This document shows positions 5,867 through 53,245 of a stretch of 64,000 bases of DNA, piece after piece. Every line of letters begins with the position of its first letter. Position 1 is the first letter of the stretch. Both the position numbers and the translations under genes were made by a program. The DNA comes from Solirubrobacterales bacterium. Lineage in GTDB: Bacteria > Actinomycetota > Thermoleophilia > Solirubrobacterales > 70-9. The DNA lies in assembly GCA_036269775.1 (NCBI GenBank), contig DATBDU010000035.1, positions 41,961-105,960 on the forward strand, given 5' to 3'. The notes under the pieces were generated by a model. It did no database searches, was not told where the DNA came from, and worked only from the letters and a program-made list of their open reading frames with translations.

Positions 5867-7123
5867 TCATGCTCCCGGCGAGGGGGGAGCGGGGCCGACG
5901 GCCGCCTTGGAGCCGGGTCTCATCAGCAGTCCCGAGCCGAGCAGGGCGAGCGCACCCATCGCCGGCAGCGGCAGCGCCGTCGAGATTGCCGCCAGGCCGC
6001 CGCCGGCCAGCCCGGAGAGGCCCTCGGCGCCGACCTGGAGCGACTGGTTGGAGCCGAGCGCGCTGCCCTGCTCGCCCGGTCCGACGGCCTGGGAGATCAT
6101 CGAGGCCATCGAGGGCAGGCAGACGGCGAGCGCCAGCGCGCAGGCACCGAGCGTGACCCAGAGCGCGCCTTGCGGATGCGGGACCACGACTGCGGCGAGG
6201 CAGACCGCCAGCGCCAGCCCGCAGCGGATCGTCAGCCGCCGCGGGTCCAGCCGCCGCGACAGGAACGCGACCAGGCCGAGGTTGGCGACGACGATCGGCA
6301 CCGCCACCCAGGCGATGAACTCCGACTCGCGCGAAATCCCCATCCCGAAGTGGTCGACCAGGTAGATCGGGTAGACGCGAAAGAAGCCGAAGATCGCAAG
6401 GTAGAGGGTGAAGTTGGCGAGGAACAGCGGCCGCAGCCACCCCGGCGCGAAGGCGGCGCCGACGCTGGCGAAGGCCCGTGCGACGCCGACCGGGGCGGCT
6501 GCGGAGGGGACGTGGGTCTCGCGGAACCGCGCCGCCGTCAGGGCCAGCGTGGCGAGCAGCAGCAGCGCCACGCCCCAGTACGGGGTCGGGAAGTCGAACC
6601 AGGAGACCAGCCCCGGGTCGGCGAGCTTGCCGCCGGCCAGTGGTCCGACCACGTAGGCGAGGCTGGAGCTGAGGTAGACGTAGCCGAACAGGCGGCTGCG
6701 CTGCGCCGCCGGGGTGACGTCGGCGATCGCGCTCTGGGCAATCGCGATGTTGGCCTCCGAGAGGCCGGCCAGCAGGCAGGCCGCCATCAGCAGCGGCAGG
6801 CTCTTGGCGTCGAGCGCCAGGGCGATCGCGGCGTAGCAAGCGGCGCTCGTCGCCAGCGAGGTCAGCAGCACCGGCCGCCGCCCGAAGCGGTCCGACAGCG
6901 CCCCGAGGATCGGCGAGCCGACGAACTGGGCGAGCGGGTAGAGGGCGAGCAGCGCGCCGAGCACCAGGGTCCGCTCGGAGATCGGGCTGGAGGGCGGCAG
7001 CAGGCCACCGTCATCGGCCAGGATCATCGGCGTGAAGACGGTGATCATCAGGCTGTAGCCGACGAAGCCGATGAAGACGACGAGGTACAGCGGCAGCACC
7101 CGTCCCAGCAGCCCCGGTTTCAC
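5867..7123 (-). CDS. MFS transporter (drug-efflux-like)
   Basis: 418 aa with about 12 hydrophobic helices and the MFS motif-A-like GALSDRFGRRPVLL. Confidence 0.8.
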   Translation of the reverse strand: MKPGLLGRVLPLYLVVFIGFVGYSLMITVFTPMILADDGGLLPPSSPISERTLVLGALLALYPLAQFVGSPILGALSDRFGRRPVLLTSLATSAACYAAIALALDAKSLPLLMAACLLAGLSEANIAIAQSAIADVTPAAQRSRLFGYVYLSSSLAYVVGPLAGGKLADPGLVSWFDFPTPYWGVALLLLATLALTAARFRETHVPSAAAPVGVARAFASVGAAFAPGWLRPLFLANFTLYLAIFGFFRVYPIYLVDHFGMGISRESEFIAWVAVPIVVANLGLVAFLSRRLDPRRLTIRCGLALAVCLAAVVVPHPQGALWVTLGACALALAVCLPSMASMISQAVGPGEQGSALGSNQSLQVGAEGLSGLAGGGLAAISTALPLPAMGALALLGSGLLMRPGSKAAVGPAPPSPGA

Positions 7124-7451: not shown

Positions 7452-7522
7452 GGCGCCTTGGCGGAGTGGCTACGCAGCGGCCTGCAAAGCCGTTTACACC
7501 AGTTCGATTCTGGTAGGCGCCT
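7452..7522 (+). tRNA. tRNA-Cys (GCA)
   Basis: Cloverleaf read by eye: acceptor GGCGCCT/AGGCGCC, anticodon arm GCGGC-CTGCAAA-GCCGT, T arm ACCAG-TTCGATT-CTGGT, discriminator U73 (typical for Cys). CCA is not encoded. Confidence 0.9.
7478..7522 (+). repeat. attL: 45-bp direct repeat (3' part of tRNA-Cys)
   Basis: CGGCCTGCAAAGCCGTTTACACCAGTTCGATTCTGGTAGGCGCCT is identical at 7478-7522 and 15159-15203. Confidence 0.9.
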
Positions 7523-7588
7523 CTAGCTTTGCGAGCGGTGTTTGGCTTGCTAGAGCGCTTTGAACGGCCTTCTCAGGCCGCTTGCTCA

Positions 7589-7650
7589 TCCGGCTGAGTC
7601 CGGTTGTTGCCGATTATCTGGATGTAAAACTGGCCCACGACTGGCCCACG
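7589..7650 (+). repeat. Left-arm motifs of element 1: 20-bp TCCGGCTGAGTCCGGTTGTT plus two tandem ACTGGCCCACG repeats
   Basis: The 20-mer at 7589-7608 is identical to 50250-50269. ACTGGCCCAC occurs at 7629-7638 and 7640-7649 (11-bp phasing). The same motif recurs near attR at 15092-15114. Confidence 0.75.
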
Positions 7651-7711
7651 GCTTCGTTCATCCGCTCGGATTTCAGATTGCGTAGAACCTGGGTGCAACA
7701 ATGTGTCGGCG

Positions 7712-7855
7712 ATGAAGCCCCAAGCTCCAGCTGCCCCGAAGACTGAGCGAGACAAGCTGCGCTTTGGCCTGCCCGGAAGCAGCACCGAGCGCAAGGGCCG
7801 GGTCAAGGCTGCGATCCAGGCCAATCGCGAGACGCTACGCCGCCTCGCCAAGTAG
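7712..7855 (+). CDS. Candidate antitoxin for Doc (47 aa; absent from the ORF track because it is under 60 aa)
   Basis: ATG 7712 (or in-frame GTG 7703) to TAG 7853-7855, ending 3 nt before the TTG start of doc. Product: MKPQAPAAPKTERDKLRFGLPGSSTERKGRVKAAIQANRETLRRLAK. No strong Shine-Dalgarno sequence and no recognisable family. Confidence 0.35.
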   Translation: MKPQAPAAPKTERDKLRFGLPGSSTERKGRVKAAIQANRETLRRLAK

Positions 7856-7858
7856 CCC

Positions 7859-8242
7859 TTGACGATCTACCTGGAGCTTGGCGATTACTGCGAGATCGCC
7901 GCTGAGTTGCTCGGTACGACTCCCGAGCAGATCGGGCGCTTGCCCAGGATCGCCCTTGCGGATTCGGCCCTTGCCACGCCTCAGGCGGGCTTCGGCGATC
8001 AGGACGCATATCCCACGCTCGTAGAGAAAGCGGCGGTTCTGGTCGAGCATCTGGCCCGCAACCACCCGCTGCCGGACGGCAACAAGCGAGCCGCTTTTCT
8101 CTCCGTGTGGCTGTTCCTTGAAGCCAACGGCCGACCGTTCGCTGGGGAAGATGCCGACACGGACGTTCCGATGGTGGAGAAGATCGCGGCTGGCGAAGCG
8201 ACTCCCAACGAAATCATCAGATGGCTGGAGAGTCGTACCTGA
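7859..8242 (+). CDS. doc: Doc (death-on-curing) / Fic-family toxin
   Basis: 127 aa with the degenerate Fic motif of Doc proteins, HPLPDGNKRAAF. TTG start at 7859. Confidence 0.8.
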   Translation: MTIYLELGDYCEIAAELLGTTPEQIGRLPRIALADSALATPQAGFGDQDAYPTLVEKAAVLVEHLARNHPLPDGNKRAAFLSVWLFLEANGRPFAGEDADTDVPMVEKIAAGEATPNEIIRWLESRT

Positions 8243-8258
8243 CGAATAGGCTCCTGGC

Positions 8259-8468
8259 GTGCCGAAGGACGCCAAGGAGAAGGCCCGCGCCGATGTGCAA
8301 CGCGCTCAGTCGAAGTTCGCGCGCGTTGACAGCGAGCGCGATCAAGTCCGCGTCGCTCGCCGGGACGCCTTTGAGCGTGCGCGAGAAGCGGGCCTGACGC
8401 TGCGCGAGATCGGCGAAGCAGCGGGGTTGCACCTGACGCGAGTCAGGGAAGTTCTCAACAGAGATTAG
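8259..8468 (+). CDS. Small helix-turn-helix protein
   Basis: 69 aa. The C-terminal GLTLREIGEAAGLHLTRVREVL looks like an HTH (sigma-70 region 4 / Xre-like). GTG start. Confidence 0.55.
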   Translation: MPKDAKEKARADVQRAQSKFARVDSERDQVRVARRDAFERAREAGLTLREIGEAAGLHLTRVREVLNRD

Positions 8469-8574
8469 GTACCCCCCTAAAACGGTGCTACGCTGCTAGC
8501 GCCCAATAAAAGCGGCCCCCGGCGGCGCGCTAACGCCAACCGGGAGCCTGACCACAAGGAGAACGAGCCTCCTC

Positions 8575-8928
8575 ATGGCTAACGAGAACCCTATGGGCGG
8601 GACGCGGCCGGTGCCGCTTGACCTCCCCGCCAAACACATCCCGATTCTGCGCTCCTGTTTGACCGGCTGGCTAGACGGCGCACGGGAAGACCTGGAAGCC
8701 CCCGAACGACTACGCCAACCCGACACAGCGCGGCGGGAAGCCCAGGCATTTGAGCGCCTGCTGGTCGCCTTGGCGACGAGGCAGATAGTCCTCCCCGACG
8801 AGGCAGCGCGGGAGGCGGTCGCGGTCGCGACTGCCGAGGGCGACGCGGCGAGCAACTACAAAGAGATTGCCGCCAACCACGACGCGCTCCACGCCCTGCT
8901 CGGCGTGCTTGAGGGCAGGAGGGCGTGA
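8575..8928 (+). CDS. Hypothetical protein (first of three translationally coupled genes)
   Basis: 117-aa ORF with AAGGAG about 16-21 nt upstream of the ATG. Its stop overlaps the next start (GTGA at 8925-8928). No motif recognised. Confidence 0.55.
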   Translation: MANENPMGGTRPVPLDLPAKHIPILRSCLTGWLDGAREDLEAPERLRQPDTARREAQAFERLLVALATRQIVLPDEAAREAVAVATAEGDAASNYKEIAANHDALHALLGVLEGRRA

Positions 8929-9176
8929 GTTCGATGGCCGACCTCCAAATGCAGCGCGCCGTGCTGGCGTTGGTGCTTCACGAACATCCGACCCTGCTGA
9001 CGCTCCCGGTGCTGGCGGGCCGGGTGCTTGCGAACCCCCGCACCCTCTCCGGAGGGGTCACACTCGCCCGCGCCCTTCGCGACCTAGACAACGAGGGCTT
9101 GGTGTTCGGCAATGGATTCCTGATCCAGCCGAGCCGACCGGCGCTCTACGTCAAGCGCCTGCTGGGGGGAAGCTGA
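8925..9176 (+). CDS. Hypothetical small protein, possibly winged-helix-like
   Basis: 83 aa. The start (GTG 8925, or ATG 8934) is coupled to the upstream stop, and its own stop overlaps the next ATG (TGATG at 9174-9178). Confidence 0.5.
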   Translation: MSSMADLQMQRAVLALVLHEHPTLLTLPVLAGRVLANPRTLSGGVTLARALRDLDNEGLVFGNGFLIQPSRPALYVKRLLGGS

Positions 9177-9664
9177 TGCTGGTCCCTGGTCGTTTCAGTA
9201 GCGCCGCAATCGGCATCGGCAATGGCGAGGTGGAGGTGCGCTTGAGCGACGGCGGCAACTGGCAGGTCAAGGTGAGGTTGACCGAGGGTGAGGACTGGCG
9301 TCTGCTCTGCCGAGGCCATATCGACGGCACCATCTTTGAGACCGCCACCCAGGACGCTGAGGAGCCGATCACGGTCGGCCCGCTGATGGTCGATCCGGCC
9401 GGTCGCCGGGTCGAGGTACGCGGGGGTGAGGTCCGCCTTACCGCGCAAGAGTTGGAAGTAGTGGCGCTGCTCGCCACCGACCCCGGCCGCGTCTTCACCA
9501 AGAAGGAGTTGCTGCGGGAGATTTGGGGGAGCAAAGATGGCGGCGCGATCCGCACTCTCGATTCACACGCGAGCCGCGCCCGCTGCAAGCTGCGCAAAGC
9601 CGGGGCCGAGGGCTTCGTCGTCAACTGCCATGGGATCGGCTACTCGCTCCGCGAGGGCCGCTGA
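9176..9664 (+). CDS. OmpR/PhoB-type winged-helix DNA-binding protein without a receiver domain
   Basis: The C-terminal LTAQELEVVALLATDPGRVFTKKELLREIWG...IRTLDSHASRARCKLRKAG...GIGYSL matches Trans_reg_C. The N-terminal 65 aa or so are unrecognised. The track ORF 8867-9664 has an implausible Pro/Arg-rich N-extension, so I start at ATG 9176. Confidence 0.7.
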   Translation: MLVPGRFSSAAIGIGNGEVEVRLSDGGNWQVKVRLTEGEDWRLLCRGHIDGTIFETATQDAEEPITVGPLMVDPAGRRVEVRGGEVRLTAQELEVVALLATDPGRVFTKKELLREIWGSKDGGAIRTLDSHASRARCKLRKAGAEGFVVNCHGIGYSLREGR

Positions 9665-9756
9665 CTGATAGCCGGGTGATTGGGGGCCGCCATCCTCAGC
9701 TGAGCGGAGGGCGGGGACCGTCGCGGTGCCGCTCCCGACGAAAGAAGTGGGACAAA

Positions 9757-10011
9757 TCGCCGCCTCATTCGACATAGGGGTGATGAGGCACGAAATCGGC
9801 TCTCACGACCAAGCGGCAGCAGTCGTCCTACCCCGTCCCCAAACGAACACTTGTCGAAAAACGGGGGCCACTTTCGAGGTTCGCCCCCCTGTAGAGCAGA
9901 TGGATATTTGCTCTCCCCTCTCGCTTCGTCGCCCGCCTCCGGGTAGGCCGACCAACCTTTTTGCCGGATTTCGCCGCCTCGTTCGACAGGGAGGTGTGAG
10001 GCTCGGAATCG
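9757..10011 (+). repeat. Two imperfect direct repeats of about 42 bp (9757-9798 and 9971-10011), each containing a hairpin
   Basis: TCGCCGCCTCATTCGACATAGGGGTGATGAGGCACGAAATCG versus TCGCCGCCTCGTTCGACAGGGAGGTGTGAGGCTCGGAATCG (about 34/42 identical). The inner stem GCCTCA/TGAGGC becomes GCCTCG/TGAGGC (A-T to G-T). Confidence 0.7.
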
Positions 10012-10094
10012 AACCGCAGGTTAAGGAGGGGGGACCACTTTCCCGGCTCGCTGCTCTGTGGGGTATCAGGGCAGATTTTTCACAGCCGCTTTTT

Positions 10095-10154
10095 CACCTT
10101 CGCCTAGCGCTTCGGGGATGGCTTCGCCTATCGCTTCCCCTGTCGCTTCGCGGG
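10095..10154 (+). repeat. Five tandem 12-bp iteron-like repeats (core GCTTCG)
   Basis: CACCTTCGCCTA GCGCTTCGGGGA TGGCTTCGCCTA TCGCTTCCCCTG TCGCTTCGCGGG. CTTC sits at positions 4-7 of every unit. The array lies about 300 bp upstream of the replication-relaxation gene. Confidence 0.7.
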
Positions 10155-10268
10155 CCGGTTGAGCCAAAGGGCCGCTACTGCGCACCCCAGCGCCGGTTGC
10201 GGGCCTGGCGTTTTGCCGACATTCCTACGCCACTTCCAATTCAAAACACCATCAAGGAGGTCTTCGTC

Positions 10269-10460
10269 ATGTTCTCTATCCGCTTCTCCTCTACGTCCCT
10301 TGCACTCGACGCCTGCGCTATCGCCTCCGCGCTGGCTCCACAACGCTCCACTACCGAGGCAACCGCCCCCGTAGTGCCAGCCCCACAGTCGGTTTCCGGC
10401 TCGGCGCTGGCTTCGCAGCACCTTGCCGTCAATCGACCGCTGCCCTGGGGGTCAGCGTGA
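10269..10460 (+). CDS. Small hypothetical protein (63 aa) coupled to the replication-relaxation gene
   Basis: Strong Shine-Dalgarno AAGGAGG at 10254-10260, 8 nt before ATG 10269. Stop TGA at 10458-10460 overlaps GTG 10457 of the next gene. Confidence 0.55.
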   Translation: MFSIRFSSTSLALDACAIASALAPQRSTTEATAPVVPAPQSVSGSALASQHLAVNRPLPWGSA

Positions 10461-11356
10461 ACTGGCAAGCAGGCTCGCGCCTGCGACTGCCAGAGGCAAC
10501 GGTGGAGATCATCGCCTCCGTCGGCGAGCATCGCATCCTCTCGACCGCCCAGGTGCGCGCGATCCGCTACCCGGATCGCAGCCTGCGCCGCACCCAGCAG
10601 GCGCTTGCTTACCTTGAGCGGGCGGGCTTGGTCGCTTATGTCGAGCGCCGCCGCACTCCCCGCCGCATGTGGTTCCTGACCGACGCCGGCGCTGACGCCG
10701 TGGTTGCCGGCGGCGAAATCAAGGAGCGGCCGAAAGTCCTCAGCCCGAAACAGGCAGCGGGTCCGCTGACCGCCCATACGCTCGGCGTCAACGAGGTCGG
10801 GGTCAGTTTCCTGCGGGCGGCGCGCGAGCGCGGCGACGATTTCGCTCCGCTCTCCTGGCGGCATGAGGTTGCCCATCCCCTCAACCATGGGCGCGGCCGC
10901 GCTCGCCGAACCCTGATCGCCGATGCGGTCTTCACCTACGTCCGCCCCGAGGACCGGCAGATCGCCGTCTACCAGCGCTTCGTTGAGGTGGATCGCGCCA
11001 CCCTCTCGGTTGAACGGCTGGTGGCCGAGCTTGCGCGCTACGGCCAGCTTTACCGGGCGCAGGACAAGCGCGACGGCGATCCGATTTGGAGCTACTACTA
11101 CCGGAGCTTCCCGCCTGTGATCTGCGCGTTGGCTGGCGCATCGCGCAAGGCGCTTGGTCGGCGGCTCGACGTCGCCGCCGCGCTGCTCGCCAGTCATCCC
11201 GCGCTCGACCGTGCCTATGACGTGGAGATCTACTTCTGCTTGCTGGACGACCTCAAGGATCGCGGCCCGTTCGCCCCGATCTTCTATGCGGTCGGCGAGC
11301 CGCAGCGCGCGGTGAACTGGATCGGTGAGGGCCGCGAGCTCGAGGACGGGCGGTGA
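10457..11356 (+). CDS. Replication-relaxation family protein (Replic_Relax-like)
   Basis: 299 aa. The N-terminal winged-helix-like HRILSTAQVRAIRYPDRSLRRTQQALAYLERAGLVAYVER...WFLTDAGADAV followed by AHTLGVNEVGVSFL fits my recollection of PF13814. Confidence 0.6.
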   Translation: MNWQAGSRLRLPEATVEIIASVGEHRILSTAQVRAIRYPDRSLRRTQQALAYLERAGLVAYVERRRTPRRMWFLTDAGADAVVAGGEIKERPKVLSPKQAAGPLTAHTLGVNEVGVSFLRAARERGDDFAPLSWRHEVAHPLNHGRGRARRTLIADAVFTYVRPEDRQIAVYQRFVEVDRATLSVERLVAELARYGQLYRAQDKRDGDPIWSYYYRSFPPVICALAGASRKALGRRLDVAAALLASHPALDRAYDVEIYFCLLDDLKDRGPFAPIFYAVGEPQRAVNWIGEGRELEDGR

Positions 11357-11367
11357 GGGGGAGAGGC

Positions 11368-11583
11368 ATGGCGAAGAAGCTCCCGGCATCCATCCCCCGC
11401 ATCGCCTTCACGCCTGCTGAGGCTGCGGCTGCAATCGGAGTTGGCCCTGACTTCTTCGACGCCAACGTAGCCCCGCAACTGCGCCTGATCCGGCGTGGCC
11501 GCAAGCGGCTCGTCCCGGTGCGCGAGCTTGAACGATGGGTGGCTGAAAACGCCGATGAGCCGATTGTCGAGCAACTCCGCTGA
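11368..11583 (+). CDS. xis: Excisionase-like HTH DNA-binding protein
   Basis: 71 aa. IAFTPAEAAAAIGVGPDFFDANVAP...LVPVRELERWV is typical of MerR-type excisionase (HTH_17) proteins. It lies directly upstream of int, with GGGGGAGAGG before ATG 11368. Confidence 0.7.
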   Translation: MAKKLPASIPRIAFTPAEAAAAIGVGPDFFDANVAPQLRLIRRGRKRLVPVRELERWVAENADEPIVEQLR

Positions 11584-11624
11584 TGGTCCTCTGCCTGAAA
11601 TCAAATGACAGGAGGTAGGTCGCG

Positions 11625-12803
11625 ATGGCTGTAGTCAAGAAGCGACATTCAAGGAACTGCCCGGCGAAGCGCGGAAAGCGGTGCAGCTGTAGTGGCGGCT
11701 ACCGCGCCGAGGTCTATTCGCCGAGAGACGAGAAGAAGATCCGCAAAACTTTCACCCACAGGGCAGACGCGCAGTCCTGGGCGGCCGAAGTGAAACGTGG
11801 AGTCGATCTCGGAACCCTTCGCGCCCCGACGAAACGCACCCTTGGCGAAGCCGCTGCCGCGTGGCTGGCGGGAGCCGACGCCGGGACGATCCGCAACCGC
11901 TCCGGTAATGGTTACAAGCCCGCGACCCTGCGCGGCTATCGGCAGGCACTTGAGGATCATGTCCTCCCGGCGCTCGGCGGCCGAAGGATGAACACGATCA
12001 CCACCTCCGATCTGCAAGCCCTCGTTGATCGTTGGAGCGCTGAGGATCAATCGCCCTCCACGATCCGCAACTCCATCAAGCCCTTGCAGGCGCTCTATCG
12101 CCGCGCCCGCGCCCGCGAAGGTCTTGCGGTCAATCCGACCCGCGACCTGGAACTGCCAGCACCGAACGCGAAGGAGGTTGAGATCGTCGCCCCCGATGTA
12201 GCCGCGCAGCTGCTCGACGTGCTGCCCGTCGAGGATCGCGCCTTGTGGGCCACTGCTCTCTACGCGGGCTTGCGTTACGGCGAGCTTCGCGCTCTCCGCT
12301 GGGCGGCGGTTGATCTGGCGGGTGGCTCGATCCGCGTAACGGAATCATGGGACCCGAAGGAGGGGGCGATCGCGCCGAAGACCAAGAACTCCCAGCGGAC
12401 GACGCCGCTCCCAGGTCTTCTTCGCGACTACCTGATGGAGTATCGGATCGCAGCTTGTGAACCTCCTGTCGAGGCTCTTGTTTTCGGCGACAAAATCGGC
12501 AAGCCGTTCCAGGCCGCGACGATCTACCGGCGAGCGGATCGGGTATGGAAGGCTCGGGCATTGGGTCGGCTGCGGCTGCACCAAGCCCGCCATACCTACG
12601 CCTCGTTCATGATCGCGGCGGGAGTCAACGCTAAGGCGTTGTCCTCCTTCATGGGCCATTCCTCGATCAAGGTTACGTTTGACCTGTACGGACACTTGAT
12701 GCCGGGCACCGAGGCTGAGGCAGCGGCGCTGTTGGATCGGTTTCTGCGGACCGATGTTCGGGAGGCCGAGGCTGCGGTCAGGCAGGCGGTTACCTCGCCC
12801 TAG
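11625..12803 (+). CDS. int: Tyrosine-type site-specific integrase
   Basis: 392 aa. The C-terminal catalytic region LRLHQARHTYASFMIAAGVNAKALSSFMGHSSIKVTFDLYGHL (R..H..R..Y signature) and the earlier GLRYGELRALRW box are present. Confidence 0.9.
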   Translation: MAVVKKRHSRNCPAKRGKRCSCSGGYRAEVYSPRDEKKIRKTFTHRADAQSWAAEVKRGVDLGTLRAPTKRTLGEAAAAWLAGADAGTIRNRSGNGYKPATLRGYRQALEDHVLPALGGRRMNTITTSDLQALVDRWSAEDQSPSTIRNSIKPLQALYRRARAREGLAVNPTRDLELPAPNAKEVEIVAPDVAAQLLDVLPVEDRALWATALYAGLRYGELRALRWAAVDLAGGSIRVTESWDPKEGAIAPKTKNSQRTTPLPGLLRDYLMEYRIAACEPPVEALVFGDKIGKPFQAATIYRRADRVWKARALGRLRLHQARHTYASFMIAAGVNAKALSSFMGHSSIKVTFDLYGHLMPGTEAEAAALLDRFLRTDVREAEAAVRQAVTSP

Positions 12804-14047
12804 CCCTGCTGGTGAAGGGCTTGGGCGATCTCGGTACCTAGCTGCGCCACGCTCCCCGCAGGTTCGTCAAAGTCGACAACGATGTAGCCCATCTCTTTGG
12901 GCTTGCCGTCTTTACCGGCGACCGAGATTGCGCTCGGCCAGCCTCGCCGAGCGTACTCCGAGGTCACCGATGGACTAAGAGCGTCGGGCGGGATGAGAAG
13001 TACCTGCTTGGGCGGCCTGGGTTTAACAACGTCTTTCGGATGGCTTCGGGCCTGCCGTCGAACTTTGCTGACAACCTCCTGCGACTTCCCGTAGATGAAG
13101 CGCTCCGCCCATCCATAGGTCATTAGGTTCAGGCGGCGGACTTGAAGGCGGTCCGAGGTAGCGACAGTGAGGCTGTGGTCTCCCGCCACCATGAACAGCC
13201 CTTTGGTCGGGCTTATCGGATAGAAGCTGATCGCCTCGGCAGAACTCTTCCATCCGTTCCCGCTCCACGGATGTTGAGGCGCGTGGTCGACCATTGAGAT
13301 CGGACGGTCCGACGTGACGAACTCGGCCCCTTCCGCGGTCAGGACGATCCAGTCAAGGGAAAAGATCTCCCCCGCGATCTCGGTGGCTACCTTCATGATT
13401 TGAGCCAAGGCCCCAGTGCGAGGGGACTCGTAGCCAACTCTTCCTTCTAGAAGCTGGTTCTGCATTCGCTTCCGCATGTCTTCCAGTTCGTCCAACGACA
13501 TGGACTGCGTGACGTCGCAATCGAACTCTTTGCGGAACGCCTCCAAACTCGACAGCCCCATGCTCGCCTTCAACTCGAAAGCTGCCTGGCGCATACGCTC
13601 GGTGCGGATAAGTCCTTCCGGCGTCCTGCTCTCTTGAAAAGCAAGGAAGAAAGCGATGGTGAGGCGATTCTGTGGCGATATCGAACCGGGGTCCTCGCAT
13701 AGGTTGTCCAAGGCGGGCGCGGCGTGCTTCTCGACGATTGAGAAGAACGACTCAACCGTCCGAGACAGCTCCCCTTGGTGATCCTCGTAGGTGTAGAGAT
13801 CTTTTACGAAGGCGACATCATCGGGCCGAGTTCGCTTTGGTGCCCCTGATCGAACATCGAGTTGGTGCATCCATCCCTTGCGCGATCCCGGAGGTTGAGC
13901 GAATCGAGCAAGCGCGAAGGCTGGAACAAAATGATGACGACGCGCAGACGAGGGCGGCAACTGTGCCTTACCCGCCGCGATTTCCCCCATCTCCGATAAG
14001 AGGGGCGGCTCCGCAAAGAAACTCGGGTCTAAGGACTGCGAGGGCAC
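12800..14047 (-). CDS. DUF4238-like protein (cargo gene)
   Basis: 415 aa. The N-terminal RRHHFVPAFALARF resembles the HY(V/I)PxFYLxxF signature I associate with DUF4238. Lower GC than the host. Its stop overlaps the int stop region (convergent). Confidence 0.6.
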   Translation of the reverse strand: MPSQSLDPSFFAEPPLLSEMGEIAAGKAQLPPSSARRHHFVPAFALARFAQPPGSRKGWMHQLDVRSGAPKRTRPDDVAFVKDLYTYEDHQGELSRTVESFFSIVEKHAAPALDNLCEDPGSISPQNRLTIAFFLAFQESRTPEGLIRTERMRQAAFELKASMGLSSLEAFRKEFDCDVTQSMSLDELEDMRKRMQNQLLEGRVGYESPRTGALAQIMKVATEIAGEIFSLDWIVLTAEGAEFVTSDRPISMVDHAPQHPWSGNGWKSSAEAISFYPISPTKGLFMVAGDHSLTVATSDRLQVRRLNLMTYGWAERFIYGKSQEVVSKVRRQARSHPKDVVKPRPPKQVLLIPPDALSPSVTSEYARRGWPSAISVAGKDGKPKEMGYIVVDFDEPAGSVAQLGTEIAQALHQQG

Positions 14048-14075
14048 AACTCAATGATGGAGCCATTCTCGGCGG

Positions 14076-14113
14076 ATGGCACCTCCTGACGCCTGGCACC
14101 GAGGCTGAGGCAG
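14076..14113 (+). pseudogene. Relic of an integrase 3' end between the two cargo genes
   Basis: GGCACCGAGGCTGAGGCAG (14095-14113) is identical to 12705-12723 inside int. The surrounding frame reads GWHLLTPGTEAEA, compared with YGHLMPGTEAEA at the int C-terminus. Confidence 0.45.
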
Positions 14114-14145
14114 TTCCGATGGAGCCTGACTTCCGTTATATCCGG

Positions 14146-15027
14146 CTAGGGCAATTCAGCAACCCCCACAAACCGACCATGGCCAAGGAAGCCGCATCGG
14201 TCGTCGCGGATGGCAGGCACCCAATAAATGAACGCACCGTTCGCGATCCGCTGGAGCCGATCTGCTCCTCGCTCTCTCCAGTCGCGTAGCTGCCACATGA
14301 GGTTCATGACTCGACGCGAGATCGTCATTGAGGTTCCGCCAAGCGTTTGGCCTCGGGGGCTGTAGACGTGACCGTCGATCATCATTGCTTGGGTAAGGCC
14401 CGCCTTCCTCAACGTCGCTCTCTCCGATTCGTCCCATTCTTGGGTGAGGCCAATGGCGTAGTTGGAGCGGAGAAAAAGTTCGGCTTTCGGCCAGTTGCGG
14501 ACTGCTCTCTCTGCAACAGACCTCTTCGTCCAGCTTCCATGGGGGAAGATCCCGATGAGGTAGGCGTCGTCTGGGCGGAGGACGACGAACAAAAGATCAC
14601 GAGTCCTCTTGGCGAATCCATCGCCCTGGATCAACATGGAGAGGTGGAGATGGTGGACTCCCCATTCCGCCAACAGCAGATCGAGATCCTTGCGTAGATG
14701 ATGGGGAGTTCCCCTGCGCCGGTCAAGCGCAACCTTCACGCTGCGGCTCAGGAATGGCTTCAAATCGTCGCCATCCTTGATCCGCTGGATCAGCGACTCT
14801 AGGGCTTTCGGTGCTTCTCCGGCTTCCATCTCCTTCTCTAGCTCTCGGGAGACGTGGACCTGGCGCGGCCGGGGCGATGGGCAGCGGTAGCGCCAGTTTC
14901 CGTAGACGGTTAGGAGGTCACGTAGCCCCAGGCTTTCTAGCTCGCGCTTCTGCCCATTCTCGCTGGGAAGCTCGGCTAGGGCGTGGCGGCGTAGGCGTTT
15001 CTCCAGACGCTCAACGAGATGCTCCAT
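14146..15027 (-). CDS. Hypothetical 293-aa protein (cargo gene next to attR)
   Basis: I start at ATG 15027 (MEHLVERLEKRL...). The track's 340-aa version extends to within 10 nt of the attR repeat, into the 131-bp spacer that holds the ACTGGCCCA arm repeats. Contains RRGTPHH and WGVHHLHLS motifs. No family recognised. Confidence 0.6.
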   Translation of the reverse strand: MEHLVERLEKRLRRHALAELPSENGQKRELESLGLRDLLTVYGNWRYRCPSPRPRQVHVSRELEKEMEAGEAPKALESLIQRIKDGDDLKPFLSRSVKVALDRRRGTPHHLRKDLDLLLAEWGVHHLHLSMLIQGDGFAKRTRDLLFVVLRPDDAYLIGIFPHGSWTKRSVAERAVRNWPKAELFLRSNYAIGLTQEWDESERATLRKAGLTQAMMIDGHVYSPRGQTLGGTSMTISRRVMNLMWQLRDWRERGADRLQRIANGAFIYWVPAIRDDRCGFLGHGRFVGVAELP

Positions 15028-15091
15028 GGTTCCCAGAGTAGGAACAGGGAAGGGCGGAACAGGAACCAAGCAGCTGCACTCGGCTGGACAA

Positions 15092-15114
15092 ACTGGCCCA
15101 TTGACTGGCCCACG
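15092..15114 (+). repeat. Right-arm tandem ACTGGCCCA repeats of element 1
   Basis: ACTGGCCCA at 15092-15100 and ACTGGCCCACG at 15104-15114, in the same orientation as the left-arm copies and about 45 bp from attR. Confidence 0.7.
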
Positions 15115-15158
15115 CTCGGGCAAAACCGCTCTACAAAGCGGATAATCGGCATATGTAC

Positions 15159-15203
15159 CGGCCTGCAAAGCCGTTTACACCAGTTCGATTCTGGTAGGCG
15201 CCT
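15159..15203 (+). repeat. attR: second copy of the 45-bp tRNA-Cys 3' segment
   Basis: Identical to 7478-7522. The sequences diverge immediately outside the repeat on both sides. Confidence 0.9.
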
Positions 15204-15214
15204 TTCGCTCCGCC

Positions 15215-49802: not shown

Positions 49803-50201
49803 TTGATCTCGATCACCTCCAAGTCGCGCTATGCGGTCGTTGCTCTCGCCGAGCTGGCCCGCTCCGGCGATCGCCCGGTGCCGATCAAGGAGCTCGCCGA
49901 GCGTCGTGAGATCCCCGAGCAGTTCCTCGAGCAGCTGTTCTCGACCCTGCGCCGAGCCGGCCTACTGACCAGCCACCGCGGCATGCGTGGCGGCTACACG
50001 CTCTCCAAACCGGCTGAAGAGATCACCGTGCTCGAGGTCGTCCAGGCGCTCGACGGCAAGATCGGCCAGGAGGCCGATGAGGCCGGCGGCATCTGGTCCG
50101 AGGGGGTGACGGCGCTGCGCAAGGTCTTCGGACAGACGACGATCGCCGAAGTGGCGCGGCGCGAGGCCGAAGAGTCGGGCAGCGGTATGTACTTCATCTA
50201 G
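49803..50201 (+). CDS. Rrf2-family transcriptional regulator (CymR/IscR-like)
   Basis: SKSRYAVVALAELARSGDRPVPIKELAERREIPEQFLEQLFSTLRRAGLLTSHRGMRGGYTL. TTG start. The last 5 codons plus the stop lie in the 18-bp repeat. Confidence 0.85.
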   Translation: MISITSKSRYAVVALAELARSGDRPVPIKELAERREIPEQFLEQLFSTLRRAGLLTSHRGMRGGYTLSKPAEEITVLEVVQALDGKIGQEADEAGGIWSEGVTALRKVFGQTTIAEVARREAEESGSGMYFI

Positions 50202-50249
50202 ATCGGGTCGCATGGGCACTGACATTCCGCTTGTTTAAGCGGATTTCAG

Positions 50250-50299
50250 TCCGGCTGAGTCCGGTTGTTTCCCGTCGTACTGGCGCACAACTGGCGCAT
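50250..50299 (+). repeat. Left-arm motifs of the mini-element
   Basis: TCCGGCTGAGTCCGGTTGTT (50250-50269) is identical to 7589-7608. Tandem ACTGGCGCAC (50279-50288) and ACTGGCGCAT (50290-50299) show 11-bp phasing, as in element 1. Confidence 0.75.
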
Positions 50300-50361
50300 G
50301 AGGCACCGCCGAAACGTTTCCGCCCACCGAGGACTACCGTCGCTCGGCCGATGAAGGCACG

Positions 50362-50544
50362 CTGAATCAGAAGAAGGCGATCAAGCTGTTGAAGGAAAAC
50401 GGCTGGACGCAGGCTCGCGGTGGCAAGCATCAGGTCAAGATGACCAAGCCCGGCTGTCGCCCAATCACGCTTCCGCAGCACAAGGGGCGCGACTACCCAA
50501 CCGGCCTGGCCCAGGCGATTCTCAAACAGGCAGAGCTAGGATGA
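50362..50544 (+). CDS. hicA: HicA-family toxin (no canonical start codon; possibly frameshifted)
   Basis: The translation LNQKKAIKLLKENGWTQARGGKHQVKMTKPGCRPITLPQHKGRDYPTGLAQAILKQAELG fits HicA (..LL.KNGW....GSH.......P.H...D...G....ILKQAGL). The only in-frame candidates are CTG 50362, ATC 50380 and TTG 50389. Confidence 0.55.
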   Translation: MNQKKAIKLLKENGWTQARGGKHQVKMTKPGCRPITLPQHKGRDYPTGLAQAILKQAELG

Positions 50545-50557
50545 AGGAACTTCACCT

Positions 50558-50773
50558 ATGGAGCTAACCGCGCGTATCCATATTGAGGACGACAGTTACT
50601 GGGCGGACGTTCCAGAGTTGCCCGGCTGCTTTGCCTCCGGCGACACCCTTGACGAGCTTTTTGAATCGCTGCAAGAGGGAGTCGCCCTCTATCTCGCCGA
50701 TGAGGGCGGGGAGAGCGGCCCGCTGCACGTTGCCACGGCGACGCTGACGGATCGACCGCTGACGCCCGCCTAA
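50558..50773 (+). CDS. hicB: HicB-family antitoxin (N-terminal domain type)
   Basis: MELTARIHIEDDSYWADVPELPGCFASGDTLDELFESLQEGVALYL is the typical HicB_lk_antitox fold sequence. Confidence 0.8.
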   Translation: MELTARIHIEDDSYWADVPELPGCFASGDTLDELFESLQEGVALYLADEGGESGPLHVATATLTDRPLTPA

Positions 50774-50829
50774 GCCGAAGTTCAAGAGAGCGGGACGAAG
50801 AAGCCGCCCGCGCGACTGGCTCGGTGCTT

Positions 50830-50862
50830 ACTGGCGCACCAACTGGCGCATAACTGGCGCAC
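50830..50862 (+). repeat. Right-arm triple ACTGGCGCA repeats of the mini-element
   Basis: ACTGGCGCAC at 50830-50839, ACTGGCGCA at 50842-50850 and ACTGGCGCAC at 50853-50862, ending 49 bp before the right copy of the 18-bp repeat. Confidence 0.75.
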
Positions 50863-50980
50863 GGAACGGCAAATCGCTTGCTCATGCGGGATTGCGCGCC
50901 CCGACTCGGCATGTACTTCATCTAGATCTAGCCTCAAATCTGTGCTTCCGATCCTCCCGCTTCATGTCACCTATCCGGTG

Positions 50981-51382
50981 CTACTCAGCCCACCAGTCGC
51001 GCTGGCCATCGACGTCTTCGCGCGGAGCCTCGCCGAGATTGGGCGCGCCGATGACGAGAATCTCAAGGCCCTCCGGCCCGGCCTCGTAGCCTCGCCACGT
51101 ACCGGGCGGGACGCGCACCGCGTCCCATTCCTTGAGCTCGACGATCTCGTCGTCGAGCTTCATCCGGCCGCTGCCGCGCAGGACCACGTACACCTCCTCT
51201 TGCTTCTCGTGCGTGTGGCCGTACGGAAAGCGATAGCCGGGCGGAACGCGCTGGTAGCTCAGGCCGGATTTCTCGAGCTCGAGTGCCTCGGTCGCCAAGC
51301 GGAACTCCAGGTCCGGCGAGCCATCGAAGTTGGACCCGACATCCTCCAAGTCCTCCTTGAGGTTCCTGAGAGTGAACGGCAC
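50981..51382 (-). CDS. Cupin-domain protein
   Basis: 133 aa. GHTHEKQEEVYVVLRGSG...VRVPPG is the cupin two-motif pattern. Confidence 0.75.
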   Translation of the reverse strand: MPFTLRNLKEDLEDVGSNFDGSPDLEFRLATEALELEKSGLSYQRVPPGYRFPYGHTHEKQEEVYVVLRGSGRMKLDDEIVELKEWDAVRVPPGTWRGYEAGPEGLEILVIGAPNLGEAPREDVDGQRDWWAE

Positions 51383-51408
51383 GGCGCAATTCTATGGCGC
51401 AGTGCTGG

Positions 51409-52254
51409 CTATTGGCCCATAGCCCTTTGCTGAGTCTGGACTGAGAACTGGTCCCCCGGTCTAAGCACCCGCGCCTCGATACCCAGTTCGGCGGCAGCGG
51501 CACTGAAGCTGCCGGGAGGATCATCGGATTGAACGTAGTTGGATGCCTCATGGAGCCGTCCATAGTGGATCGGGACGGCGGTTCGTGCGCCGAGCAGCTT
51601 GGCAGCTACCGCCGCCTGCTTAGGGTTCATCCCGGCAGGTAGGGGACTGGAGGGTTGGCGTTGAGGAAGATCGACCACCGCACCGCCGACCGGTAGAAAA
51701 GCCACGTCGAAGGGGCCGTGGCGAAGAGCTGACAGCCACCACCACCCGTGAAAGAGCGTGTCGCCCGCATGAAGGATGCGACACCCGTCCGCCGCGATGC
51801 ACCACGAGACCTGTGGGTCGCCAAACCCATCTGCGGCGGGGAGGGCCGTGAAGCTGAATGGGCCGATCTCGACGGTCTCCCATGGCTTGACAACGCGGGT
51901 AGCGAGTCCGCTCATTTCAAGCGCCGATTCGGCTTTCTCGATCAAGGCAACCTCGGCTTTGCTGCCGTAGCCCTTTTCCGGCCTCAAGACAACAGCTGTA
52001 GGGGCAAGTACGCGGCCAAGGGCATCAATATCCGCGTGGTCACTGTGCAGGTGGGTGAGCAGTCCCGCAACTGCGGTCACTGGTTTGGGGGAGGATGGTG
52101 TCTCCTCGGCTGGAGGATTGTCGCCGTGGAGGCCTGAGAAATCCTCGACCAAGTCGATCACCGCGGTCTGTCCAGCGGCGTTGATTTCAAGCCCCGCCCA
52201 AGCCAAGCGTCGGACCTCCATTGCTCGGTGAATATCACAGGGCGTCTTGCGCAT
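51409..52254 (-). CDS. MBL-fold metallo-hydrolase
   Basis: LLTHLHSDHAD (HxHxDH) and a later HAGDT. The start could be the internal MEVRRL. Confidence 0.75.
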   Translation of the reverse strand: MRKTPCDIHRAMEVRRLAWAGLEINAAGQTAVIDLVEDFSGLHGDNPPAEETPSSPKPVTAVAGLLTHLHSDHADIDALGRVLAPTAVVLRPEKGYGSKAEVALIEKAESALEMSGLATRVVKPWETVEIGPFSFTALPAADGFGDPQVSWCIAADGCRILHAGDTLFHGWWWLSALRHGPFDVAFLPVGGAVVDLPQRQPSSPLPAGMNPKQAAVAAKLLGARTAVPIHYGRLHEASNYVQSDDPPGSFSAAAAELGIEARVLRPGDQFSVQTQQRAMGQ

Positions 52255-52321
52255 CGGCGCCCCCGGCGCACTACGCTGCCCGAGTGCGTGACCGCCTTTC
52301 TCTGAGGACGTACTTCACCTG

Positions 52322-53245
52322 ATGCGGATCGGGGCTGAGACTTCCGCGGTTGTCGGCGGCACGCCGCTGGTGCTGCTCGACCGGCTCGCCGACGGATTGG
52401 CCGGACAGGTCTGCGCCAAGCTCGAGTACTTCAATCCCGGCGGTTCGGTCAAGGACCGGATCGGGGTGGCGATGATCGACGCGGCCGAGGAGACGGGACT
52501 GGTCAAACCGGGCCGCTCGGTGGTGGTCGAGCCGACCAGCGGCAACACCGGGATCGCCCTGGCGATGGTCTGCGCCGCCCGTGGCTACGAGCTGATCCTG
52601 ACCCTGCCGGAGGGGATGAGCCGGGAGCGGGCGAAGCTGCTGCGCGCCTATGGGGCCGAGGTGCGGGAGACGCCCTCGCTGGGCGGGATGAACGAGGCGG
52701 TTGCTCTGGCCGAAGAGATCCGCGAGCAGCGCAAAGCCTTCATGCCGATGCAGTTTTCCAACCCCGCCAACGCCGAGGCCCACCGCCGCACCACGGCGGA
52801 GGAGATTTGGAATGACACCGACGGGCAGATCGGCGCCTTCGTCGCCGGGGTCGGCACCGGCGGGACGATCACCGGGGTCGGTCGGATGCTGAGGGAGCGG
52901 GCGCCCGAGGCGCTGGTCGTCGCGGTCGAGCCGGCCAGCTCGCCGGTCCTCTCCGGCGGCGCCCCCGGCCCGCACAAGATCCAGGGAATCGGCGCCGGCT
53001 TCGTGCCGGAGGTGCTGGACCGCTCGGTGATCGACGAGATCCTCTCCGTGACCGACGAGGACGCGCTGGAGACGGCGCGGCTGGTCGCCCGGGAGGAGGG
53101 GGTCCTGGCCGGGATCTCGGCCGGCGCCAACATCAGCGCCGCGCTGGAGATCGCGGCGCGGCCGGCGATGGCCGGCAAGCGGGTGGTGACGGTCGTCTGC
53201 GATTCGGGCGAGCGCTACATGTCCCTACCCTTCTTCTCACCATGA
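52322..53245 (+). CDS. cysK: Cysteine synthase A (O-acetylserine sulfhydrylase)
   Basis: [16 protein letters not shown] (PLP Lys), [12 protein letters not shown] and [10 protein letters not shown]. Confidence 0.92.

Follow-up and report, generated by a model that had tools for sequence, protein, structure and literature searches.

A probable decayed, integrase-less integrative element carrying hicAB at the Rrf2-cysK locus of uncultured Solirubrobacterales

Background

What remains of a small integrative element once its integrase gene is gone, and can the remainder still move? This question is raised by a 0.7-kb segment within 64,000 nucleotides of contig DATBDU010000035.1 (assembly GCA_036269775.1, positions 41,961 to 105,960 of the forward strand; hereafter the window, with position 1 its first letter), from a member of the Solirubrobacterales (Actinomycetota). 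At positions 50187-50928, between a gene for an Rrf2-family regulator and the cysteine synthase gene cysK, two copies of an 18-nucleotide repeat enclose a hicAB toxin-antitoxin pair. An initial annotation, made from the sequence alone, read the segment as a miniature integrative element without an integrase, related to a larger element at tRNA-Cys in the same window, and offered two accounts of it: a decayed relative that had kept only a toxin-antitoxin module, or a non-autonomous unit mobilized in trans. Here we report that the segment, referred to below as the mini-element, is very probably a decayed, integrase-less derivative (a cis-mobilizable element, or CIME) of small integrative elements found at the same attachment (att) site in uncultured Solirubrobacterales.

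The comparison set consisted of about 100 related loci from uncultured soil Solirubrobacterales, which carry L-numbers (L012 is L004 fetched with longer flanks). Contig Ga0376673_0000052 of JGI data set 3300036799 matches the window without a difference over the roughly 10 kb compared. A scan of species-representative genomes gave 119 relatives, and 78 loci were kept and classified, nearly all of them in metagenome-assembled genomes (MAGs) of uncultured Solirubrobacterales. Chance expectations for repeats were taken from shuffled sequence. The features of the window are collected in Table 1.

Results

Att cores, arms and the empty site

The 18-mer ATGTACTTCATCTAGATC is present exactly twice in the window, with 706 bp between the copies, and the chance expectation is zero even with two mismatches allowed. 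It had been described as the last five Rrf2 codons and the stop; it actually comprises four codons (M-Y-F-I) and the stop, with three bases beyond it, and the last four codons of Rrf2 and its stop accordingly lie within the left core (attL). Downstream of the right core (attR) the sequence continues with TAGCC, not with cysK.

An uninterrupted counterpart of this site, which the initial annotation had proposed to look for in relatives, is present in L003/L013, where the Rrf2 protein is identical to that of the window, Rrf2 ends at position 6399 and a PALP-family gene starts at the same position. This empty site in a close relative bears out site-specific integration at the 3' end of Rrf2. It reads ATGTACTTCATCTAATGAAG in L003, so that the part in common with attB is ATGTACTTCATCTA, and the Rrf2 stop overlaps the cysK start (ATCTAATGA, L003 6385-6405), an arrangement that implies probable translational coupling of the two genes. 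The identical 132-amino-acid Rrf2 protein was found on 16 metagenome or MAG contigs, with variable content downstream.

Both arms of the mini-element contain phased repeats distinct from the core, two in the left arm and three in the right, that are conserved throughout the family. In the left arm, a palindrome (CCGCTTGTTTAAGCGG, 50227-50242) and the 20-mer TCCGGCTGAGTCCGGTTGTT (50250-50269) are followed by two copies of ACTGGCGCA (50279-50287 and 50290-50298) in a phase of 11 nt; a third, degenerate repeat, AGTGGCGCA, which is present in full-size relatives and in the mini-element of L016, is missing from this arm. The right arm has copies of ACTGGCGCA starting at 50830, 50842 and 50853, in a phase of 12 and then 11 nt, and also includes CGCTTGCTCATGCG, which is an imperfect palindrome, and the conserved stretch CATGCGGGATTGCGCGCCCCGACTCGGC (50883-50910). 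The degenerate motif ACTGGCSCA has 12 matches in the window, against 0.93 expected. The direct repeat, the 20-mer and the two-plus-three arm repeats are thus all where the initial annotation had placed them and are non-random; a chance origin of the repeats was ruled out, since shuffled sequence is expected to give zero matches.

The same left arm recurs in relatives. About 95 nt past the Rrf2 stop align with the window in L002, L004, L006, L007 and L010, and these five arms share the palindrome CCGCTTGTTnAAGCGG, the 20-mer with one to three mismatches and then the ACTGGCGCA repeats; L009 has a more degenerate version. The arm is also kept in L012, L014, L016-L018 and others, and beyond it the cargo of the loci diverges completely. 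Full-size occupants of the Rrf2 site, with the same arms and a 400-amino-acid integrase of family PF00589, were found in L012 and also in L017/L020. The L012 element, of about 7 kb, is composed of the left arm, a Replic_Relax gene, three helix-turn-helix (HTH) genes, the integrase gene, the right arm and the core, after which cysK begins. Aligned to the arms of integrase-bearing elements, the left arm of the mini-element is 84-94% identical and the right arm 91-98%.

A remnant of the integrase gene

The initial annotation held that the 706 bp between the cores encode only HicA and HicB. Pfam confirms both, and a third component lies beside them, a remnant of an integrase gene: window positions 50785-50853 translate to RERDEEAARATGSVLTGAPTGA and a stop, and the integrase of L012 ends in RERDEEAARAAGSVLTGAPTGA and a stop, with 21 of 22 C-terminal residues matched. 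No further gene lies between the cores, and the mini-element encodes no tyrosine integrase (PF00589) beyond these 22 codons; such enzymes are encoded by its full-size relatives and by the tRNA-Cys element. In L012 the last codons of the integrase gene (400 amino acids, PF00589, E = 2.1e-22) overlap three right-arm repeats, and the right arm of the window is 98% identical to that of this integrase-bearing element. The 22-codon match and the near-identical right arm therefore argue that the mini-element once had this integrase gene and lost the rest of it, and the retained remnant marks it as a deletion derivative rather than a purpose-built miniature, in keeping with the first of the two accounts given by the initial annotation. 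The junction between hicB and the remnant is identical in the window and in L016, L017, L018, L020, L023, L026, L028, L032 and L033, which points to a single origin of this junction. Decay intermediates with larger integrase fragments are seen in L094 and L011.

The cognate enzyme had been predicted to be a cousin of the integrase encoded at 11625 in the window. This is what the relatives show, as the integrase of L012 is 47% identical to that enzyme over 386 residues and the integrase of L017 likewise 47%. The integrase at 11625 was itself rejected as the cognate enzyme: the core of its element differs (tRNA-Cys 3' end versus Rrf2 3' end), its arm repeat is one base off, and a 47%-identical integrase of the Rrf2 site exists. 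A tblastn search of the 64-kb window found no second, cognate integrase. One base of the arm repeat seems to follow the integrase type, the form being ACTGGCGCA at the Rrf2 site and ACTGGCCCA at tRNA-Cys.

The hicAB cargo

The pair has the domain order of a HicAB type II toxin-antitoxin system, with the HicA toxin first and the HicB antitoxin after it. The HicB match covers profile positions 5-53 of 123, corresponding to the N-terminal HicB-like domain only, without the DNA-binding domain. In the window, hicA is not an intact, translatable toxin gene: after ATGAA (within 50351-50365), a deletion of one nucleotide causes the ATG frame to read MKAR and a stop, and the HicA frame has no ATG, GTG or TTG before the TTG at 50389, which would leave a product of 51 amino acids instead of 64. 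The deletion is absent from the six other copies compared, which encode a 64-amino-acid HicA. Either the toxin gene has truly decayed, or a homopolymer run was misread in sequencing. A conserved leader precedes hicA and is always found directly 3' of an arm-type repeat, and this repeat belongs either to a left arm or to an integrase gene's 3' end. The identical HicB protein occurs on at least 21 contigs, and all ten of the places listed are the Rrf2-cysK locus.

Horizontal acquisition and mosaic structure

Identity to the window at the DNA level rises sharply at hicAB. Among L016-L023 it is 73-76% for the response-regulator gene in the flank, 81-84% for cysK and 85-88% for Rrf2, and reaches 91-98% for hicAB over the part aligned by blastn; measured separately over 470 nt, the hicAB of L017 and that of the window are 99% identical. 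Ten contigs with the most similar flanks (87-94%, with an identical Rrf2 protein) have no hicAB, and L080, the closest species representative by its flanks (CysK 92%), has a HicB that is only 85% identical. Because hicAB is far more alike than its flanks and is missing from the closest relatives, the window copy must have been acquired horizontally. Vertical inheritance was considered and rejected, given that the closest HicB relatives reside in genomes whose CysK protein is only 81-88% identical, and that the closest genomes have no hicAB or an 85% copy.

The nearest relative also differs from segment to segment, being L032 for the left arm (94%), L017 for hicAB (99%) and L012 for the right arm (98%). 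The mini-element is therefore a mosaic, which argues that elements recombined with one another and against transfer of a fixed 0.7-kb unit.

Distribution and decay variants

Two thirds of the classified loci (52 of 78) have hicAB at the Rrf2/cysK locus, and in the other 26 it lies elsewhere in the genome. At Rrf2/cysK, the complete mini-element as in the window was found at two loci, hicAB fused to an integrase gene at one, hicAB in tandem with a full element at two, hicAB with the left arm only at 11, hicAB without arms and abutting cysK at 21, and other arrangements at 15. An exact-protein look-up provided L016 and L018 as further complete mini-elements. The armless copies, in 21 species, lie about 0-100 nt from cysK, many of them at 5-36 nt. 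The initial annotation had named a hicAB block without flanking repeats in relatives as a finding that would tell against an integrative origin, and these 21 species show it between Rrf2 and cysK, alongside the relatives in which repeats are retained; the armless copies are more diverged, and are best taken for the last step in the same course of decay and not for a refutation.

Within this element family, the module recurs beside the left arm. Other genomes have elements at tRNA-Cys with hicAB directly after the tRNA, and their integrases are 69-71% identical to that of the tRNA-Cys element in the window. In L038 the remnant at tRNA-Cys consists of hicAB only, with ACTGGCCCA repeats and, 3' of hicB, a degenerate repeat of the tRNA end. 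This remnant belongs to a group of independent integrase-less derivatives that also includes L094, which keeps the C-terminal third of the integrase; L070, with 3 kb of cargo; L011, a cargo-less fusion of the left arm to the 3' end of the integrase gene; and the Rrf2-site element of L021.

Other loci combine the block with an integrase. In L017, L020, L022, L026 and L102, hicAB, the integrase remnant and the right arm directly follow a complete integrase gene, joined to it at an arm repeat (TGGCGCA/TGAG, with the join at the slash), and in L029 and L035 a core, a left arm and hicAB come after a full element. These fused and tandem loci are accretion arrays and their deletion products, and constitute an autonomous vehicle for the block.

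Several side observations concern these loci. L026 has two hicAB pairs (+422 to +850 from the first HicB): the element-borne pair is 97-99% identical to the window at the protein level, and the second, which is armless and 83-89% identical, abuts cysK, so that element-borne and resident copies coexist. The integrase-less element of L021 (8506-9915) carries hicAB and then KwaA/KwaB, the Kiwa anti-phage system, between its left arm and an integrase remnant; beyond these, 5' of cysK, is an island that resembles arsenic-resistance islands, with LMWPc, MIP and HTH_20 genes. In L050, L059 and L081, hicAB relatives with ACTGGCGCA repeats are located beside tRNA-Leu(gag), about 240-1950 nt downstream of the HicB start, which suggests tRNA-Leu(gag) as a third attachment site of the same family.

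A tandem array between Rrf2 and cysK

The Rrf2-cysK gap of the window is occupied by a 2.1-kb tandem array of the mini-element, a second, older island with genes for a cupin and a metallo-beta-lactamase-fold protein but no recognizable arms, and a third, degenerate core copy; the attR of L012 served as the comparison sequence for this copy (ATGTACTTCATCTGATGCGG). The third core marks where the array originally bordered on cysK. At the right core of the mini-element, AGATC is retained after the 13-nt shared core, a characteristic of attL-type junctions, and this suggests that the mini-element recombined with the attL of an island or element already in place. The cupin block recurs beside a core copy in L021, L022 and L063 at 93-95% identity, with cysK at only about 82%, and judging from these identities it too looks to have been spread horizontally.

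Every insertion at this hot spot parts Rrf2 from cysK, and in the window the two antisense genes of the island lie in the gap. On the 3' side of cysK/cysE, a UvrD-family helicase gene has an intein (PF14890) in some genomes only (L003 8738-11323; L018 11241-14585); the intein-free versions include some of 753-755 amino acids.

Element 1 at tRNA-Cys

The second element of the window, element 1, is integrated at a tRNA-Cys gene (7452-7523) and is bounded by a 58-nt repeat of the 3' part of the tRNA (7471-7528 and 15152-15209), with ACTGGCCCA arm repeats at 7629/7640 and 15092/15104. Its kinship to the mini-element, claimed by the initial annotation, is upheld by a common arm layout that includes the 20-mer, and by the Replic_Relax and integrase genes that full-size Rrf2-site elements have as element 1 does. 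The 20-mer occurs exactly twice in the window, in the left arm of the mini-element and at 7589-7608 in element 1, with a chance expectation of zero. As a sign of recent exchange between the two it is not supported: the motif varies at one to three positions across the family, and no exact copy was found in L001-L010. Being a conserved left-arm motif, it can be identical in two elements of one genome by coincidence.

Directly 3' of the left-arm repeats of element 1, a 50-amino-acid open reading frame is followed by a Fic/Doc-family gene (together 7703-8242), at the position held by hicAB in the mini-element and in the tRNA-Cys elements of L038, L049 and L053; a toxin-antitoxin-like pair beside attL seems typical of the family. 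Beyond a DUF4238 gene, element 1 also has a stretch of about 33 nt (14081-14113) nearly identical to 12691-12723 in the 3' region of its integrase gene (the PGTEAEA motif). This suggestive match is a possible relic of another integrase gene, in which case element 1, too, would be composite.

Table 1. Features of the Rrf2-cysK locus and of element 1 in the window
Feature	Position	Strand	Basis or remark
Rrf2-family regulator, target gene	49803-50201	+	Pfam PF02082, E = 2.6e-29
attL core, left copy of ATGTACTTCATCTAGATC	50187-50204	+	Exact repeat search
Left arm	50205-50298	+	Conserved ~95 nt in family
Conserved leader 5' of hicA, beginning CCGCCGAAACGTTTCCGCC	50299-50350	+	Cross-locus comparison
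hicA toxin gene, frameshifted	50351-50544	+	Pfam PF07927, E = 5.9e-12
hicB antitoxin gene, 71 aa	50558-50773	+	Pfam PF15919, E = 6.3e-8
Integrase gene remnant, last 22 codons and stop	50785-50853	+	Overlaps first two right-arm repeats
Right arm	50830-50910	+	Three arm-type repeats, palindrome and conserved block
attR core of mini-element, right copy of 18-nt repeat	50911-50928	+	Exact repeat search
Second, older island	50929-52307	-	Pfam
Cupin gene of island	50981-51382	-	Pfam
Metallo-beta-lactamase-fold gene of island	51409-52254	-	Pfam
Third, degenerate core copy ACGTACTTCACCTG	52308-52321	+	Directly 5' of cysK ATG (52322)
cysK, pyridoxal phosphate-dependent cysteine synthase	52322-53245	+	Pfam PF00291, E = 4e-77
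Element 1, 7.7 kb, at tRNA-Cys	7452-15209	+	att repeats, arms, Pfam
Element 1, Fic/Doc gene	7859-8242		Pfam
Element 1, Replic_Relax gene	10457-11356		Pfam
Element 1, integrase gene	11625-12803		Pfam PF00589

Discussion

Origin of the mini-element

The history that accounts best for these observations would begin with full-size elements of about 7 kb, bearing a Replic_Relax gene, HTH regulators and a tyrosine integrase of the lambda-Int type, which would integrate between the last Rrf2 codons and the overlapping cysK start. Their integrase would bind the ACTGGCGCA arm-type sites of the left and right arms and carry out strand exchange within ATGTACTTCATCT, and since the element brings its own copy of the Rrf2 end, the gene is left intact. 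An internal deletion would then have removed the cargo and the whole integrase gene apart from its last 22 codons, so that between attL and attR there remain the two arms, hicAB and the integrase remnant; this derivative was acquired horizontally and is part of a tandem array, upstream of the older cupin/metallo-beta-lactamase island and the degenerate core. The mini-element cannot move alone. If it is still mobile, the likely route is that an incoming integrase-bearing relative would integrate at one of the att sites and excise together with it, and composite arrangements that fit such a route in cis do occur (L017, L020, L022, L026, L029, L035 and L102); the horizontal distribution fits it as well. 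Survival of hicAB in the remnant would be explained by the resistance of toxin-antitoxin pairs to loss, with the proviso that the toxin gene of the window is itself frameshifted.

A number of points weigh against this history. The 21 species with armless hicAB beside cysK would also be compatible with long chromosomal residence and later capture. The frameshift in hicA may stem from a sequencing error. We infer both the binding of the integrase to ACTGGCGCA and the position of the crossover by analogy with lambda-type integrases. The direction of the steps is ambiguous, as a composite of integrase and hicAB may have given rise to the mini-element by deletion between arm repeats, or a tandem array to the composite. 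Finally, when metagenomes were scanned for a right arm joined through a core to a left arm, no excision product or attP circle of the mini-element was found: only three short contigs, without terminal overlaps, had the right-arm/core junction, and none was a mini-circle. L104 runs on into a left arm, L103 does so too but stops at the contig end with no right arm reached, and L102 is a composite formed by fusion.

The other account offered by the initial annotation, in which the segment is an active non-autonomous 0.7-kb unit served by an integrase in trans, and so a site-specific-recombinase analogue of a miniature inverted-repeat transposable element (MITE), is in our view unlikely. Two cores identical over 18 nt, family motifs in both arms and conservation of hicAB far above that of the flanking genes are what such a unit would display, as is the recurrence of the architecture, with the same hicB/integrase-remnant junction, in at least five other divergent genomes, including L016, L018, L028 and L033. 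Neither multiple dispersed copies nor inheritance as a unit was found, however: the window has one copy, copies of the Rrf2 type are all at the same att site, and the three segments with their different nearest relatives form a mosaic. The left arm has moreover lost one of three arm-type repeats, the 64-kb window holds no cognate integrase, the metagenome scan recovered no mini-circle junction, and the existence of an autonomous vehicle for the same block (L017, L020 and L026) makes mobilization in trans unnecessary. A related idea, to which we give a small but real chance, is that the left arm, hicAB and the right arm together form an att-flanked toxin-antitoxin cassette, a minimal passenger that perpetuates itself: integrase-bearing Solirubrobacterales elements would pick it up and re-seed it time and again, in trans or by accretion, and it would persist by virtue of hicAB. 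If true, it would use as many as three att sites (the 3' end of Rrf2, tRNA-Cys and perhaps tRNA-Leu) and would in effect be a tyrosine-recombinase counterpart of a MITE.

That hicAB might instead be an ancestral chromosomal pair of the Rrf2-cysK operon, with the arms and repeats left over from unrelated elements, could be argued from its frequency at this locus (the 52 of 78 species-representative loci, with the 21 armless copies near cysK), and yet we consider it very improbable. A native pair would lie outside the att boundaries, whereas hicAB lies inside them, between an attL-type and an attR-type arm; the same hicAB and leader directly follow arm repeats at tRNA-Cys (L038, L049 and L053), and hicAB is also found near tRNA-Leu; and a distant genome has a copy 99% identical to that of the window, while among the closest relatives hicAB is missing or the site is empty, an incongruence that speaks against this view. 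A decayed derivative of the Rrf2-site elements thus remains the reading that we prefer.

Comparison with known systems

Integrase-less, att-flanked remnants are already well known, as is the pattern of tandem accretion, and the mini-element matches this type. It is bounded by attL and attR of its family, lacks genes for integration, excision and transfer, and was derived by decay, in agreement with the definition of a CIME (PMC5704250). The closest parallels are the CIMEs of the ICESt1/ICESt3 integrative and conjugative element (ICE) family in Streptococcus thermophilus (Pavlovic et al. 2004; Bellanger et al. 2011; as summarized in PMC5704250). These likewise have family attL and attR flanks and have lost integration and transfer genes by deletion; they too occupy the 3' end of a protein-coding gene and stand in tandem with relatives at the same site, an accretion that allows mobilization in cis. 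The present case differs in its host, an uncultured member of the Solirubrobacterales (Actinomycetota), in having hicAB as its only cargo, in being known from sequence alone, and in its parent elements, which are small (about 7 kb, with Replic_Relax and integrase genes) and not ICEs with type IV secretion.

Elements of the staphylococcal cassette chromosome (SCC) that lack ccr, and tandem SCC arrays, are found at the 3' end of rlmH (orfX) in staphylococci (PMC3637587, PMC5964201). There, too, insertions gather where a conserved gene ends (its 3' end being the hot spot) and leave its frame intact, cassettes in arrays are parted by att cores, and recombinase-less cassettes rely on the recombinase of a neighboring element. 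SCC elements use large serine recombinases and are without arm-type sites, in contrast to the tyrosine integrase and phased arm repeats of the family described here. Within the Actinomycetota, PAISt of Streptomyces turgidiscabies and other modular islands of Streptomyces integrate at the 3' end of the protein-coding gene bacA (PMC4057263), with internal att copies that allow sub-elements to be excised as modules; for accretion and cis-mobilization of Streptomyces pathogenicity islands the source is Zhang and Loria 2017, as cited in PMC5704250. PAISt is very large and has an 8-bp palindromic core, unlike the 0.7-kb remnant with its 18-nt core and lambda-like arms. MITEs and integron cassettes, non-autonomous units that are mobilized in trans, also have no recombinase of their own and retain cis-acting sites, but MITEs occur in many copies, which transposases carry to many sites, and integron cassettes use attC and IntI, whereas the mini-element is a single copy at one fixed att site.

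Conclusions

The mini-element itself is an ordinary type of remnant; it is the locus that is of wider use. Across more than 50 species of Solirubrobacterales, a single att hot spot offers a clean natural decay series: the site is seen empty, with full elements or with tandem arrays, and there are intermediates with a truncated integrase, shells made up of arms only and hicAB wholly without arms. Such a series could be used to test whether toxin-antitoxin modules survive longest in decaying elements, and to define attP, the arm sites and integrase specificity in a poorly studied order of soil Actinomycetota. For the host, insertions that separate Rrf2 from cysK may alter the regulation of cysteine.

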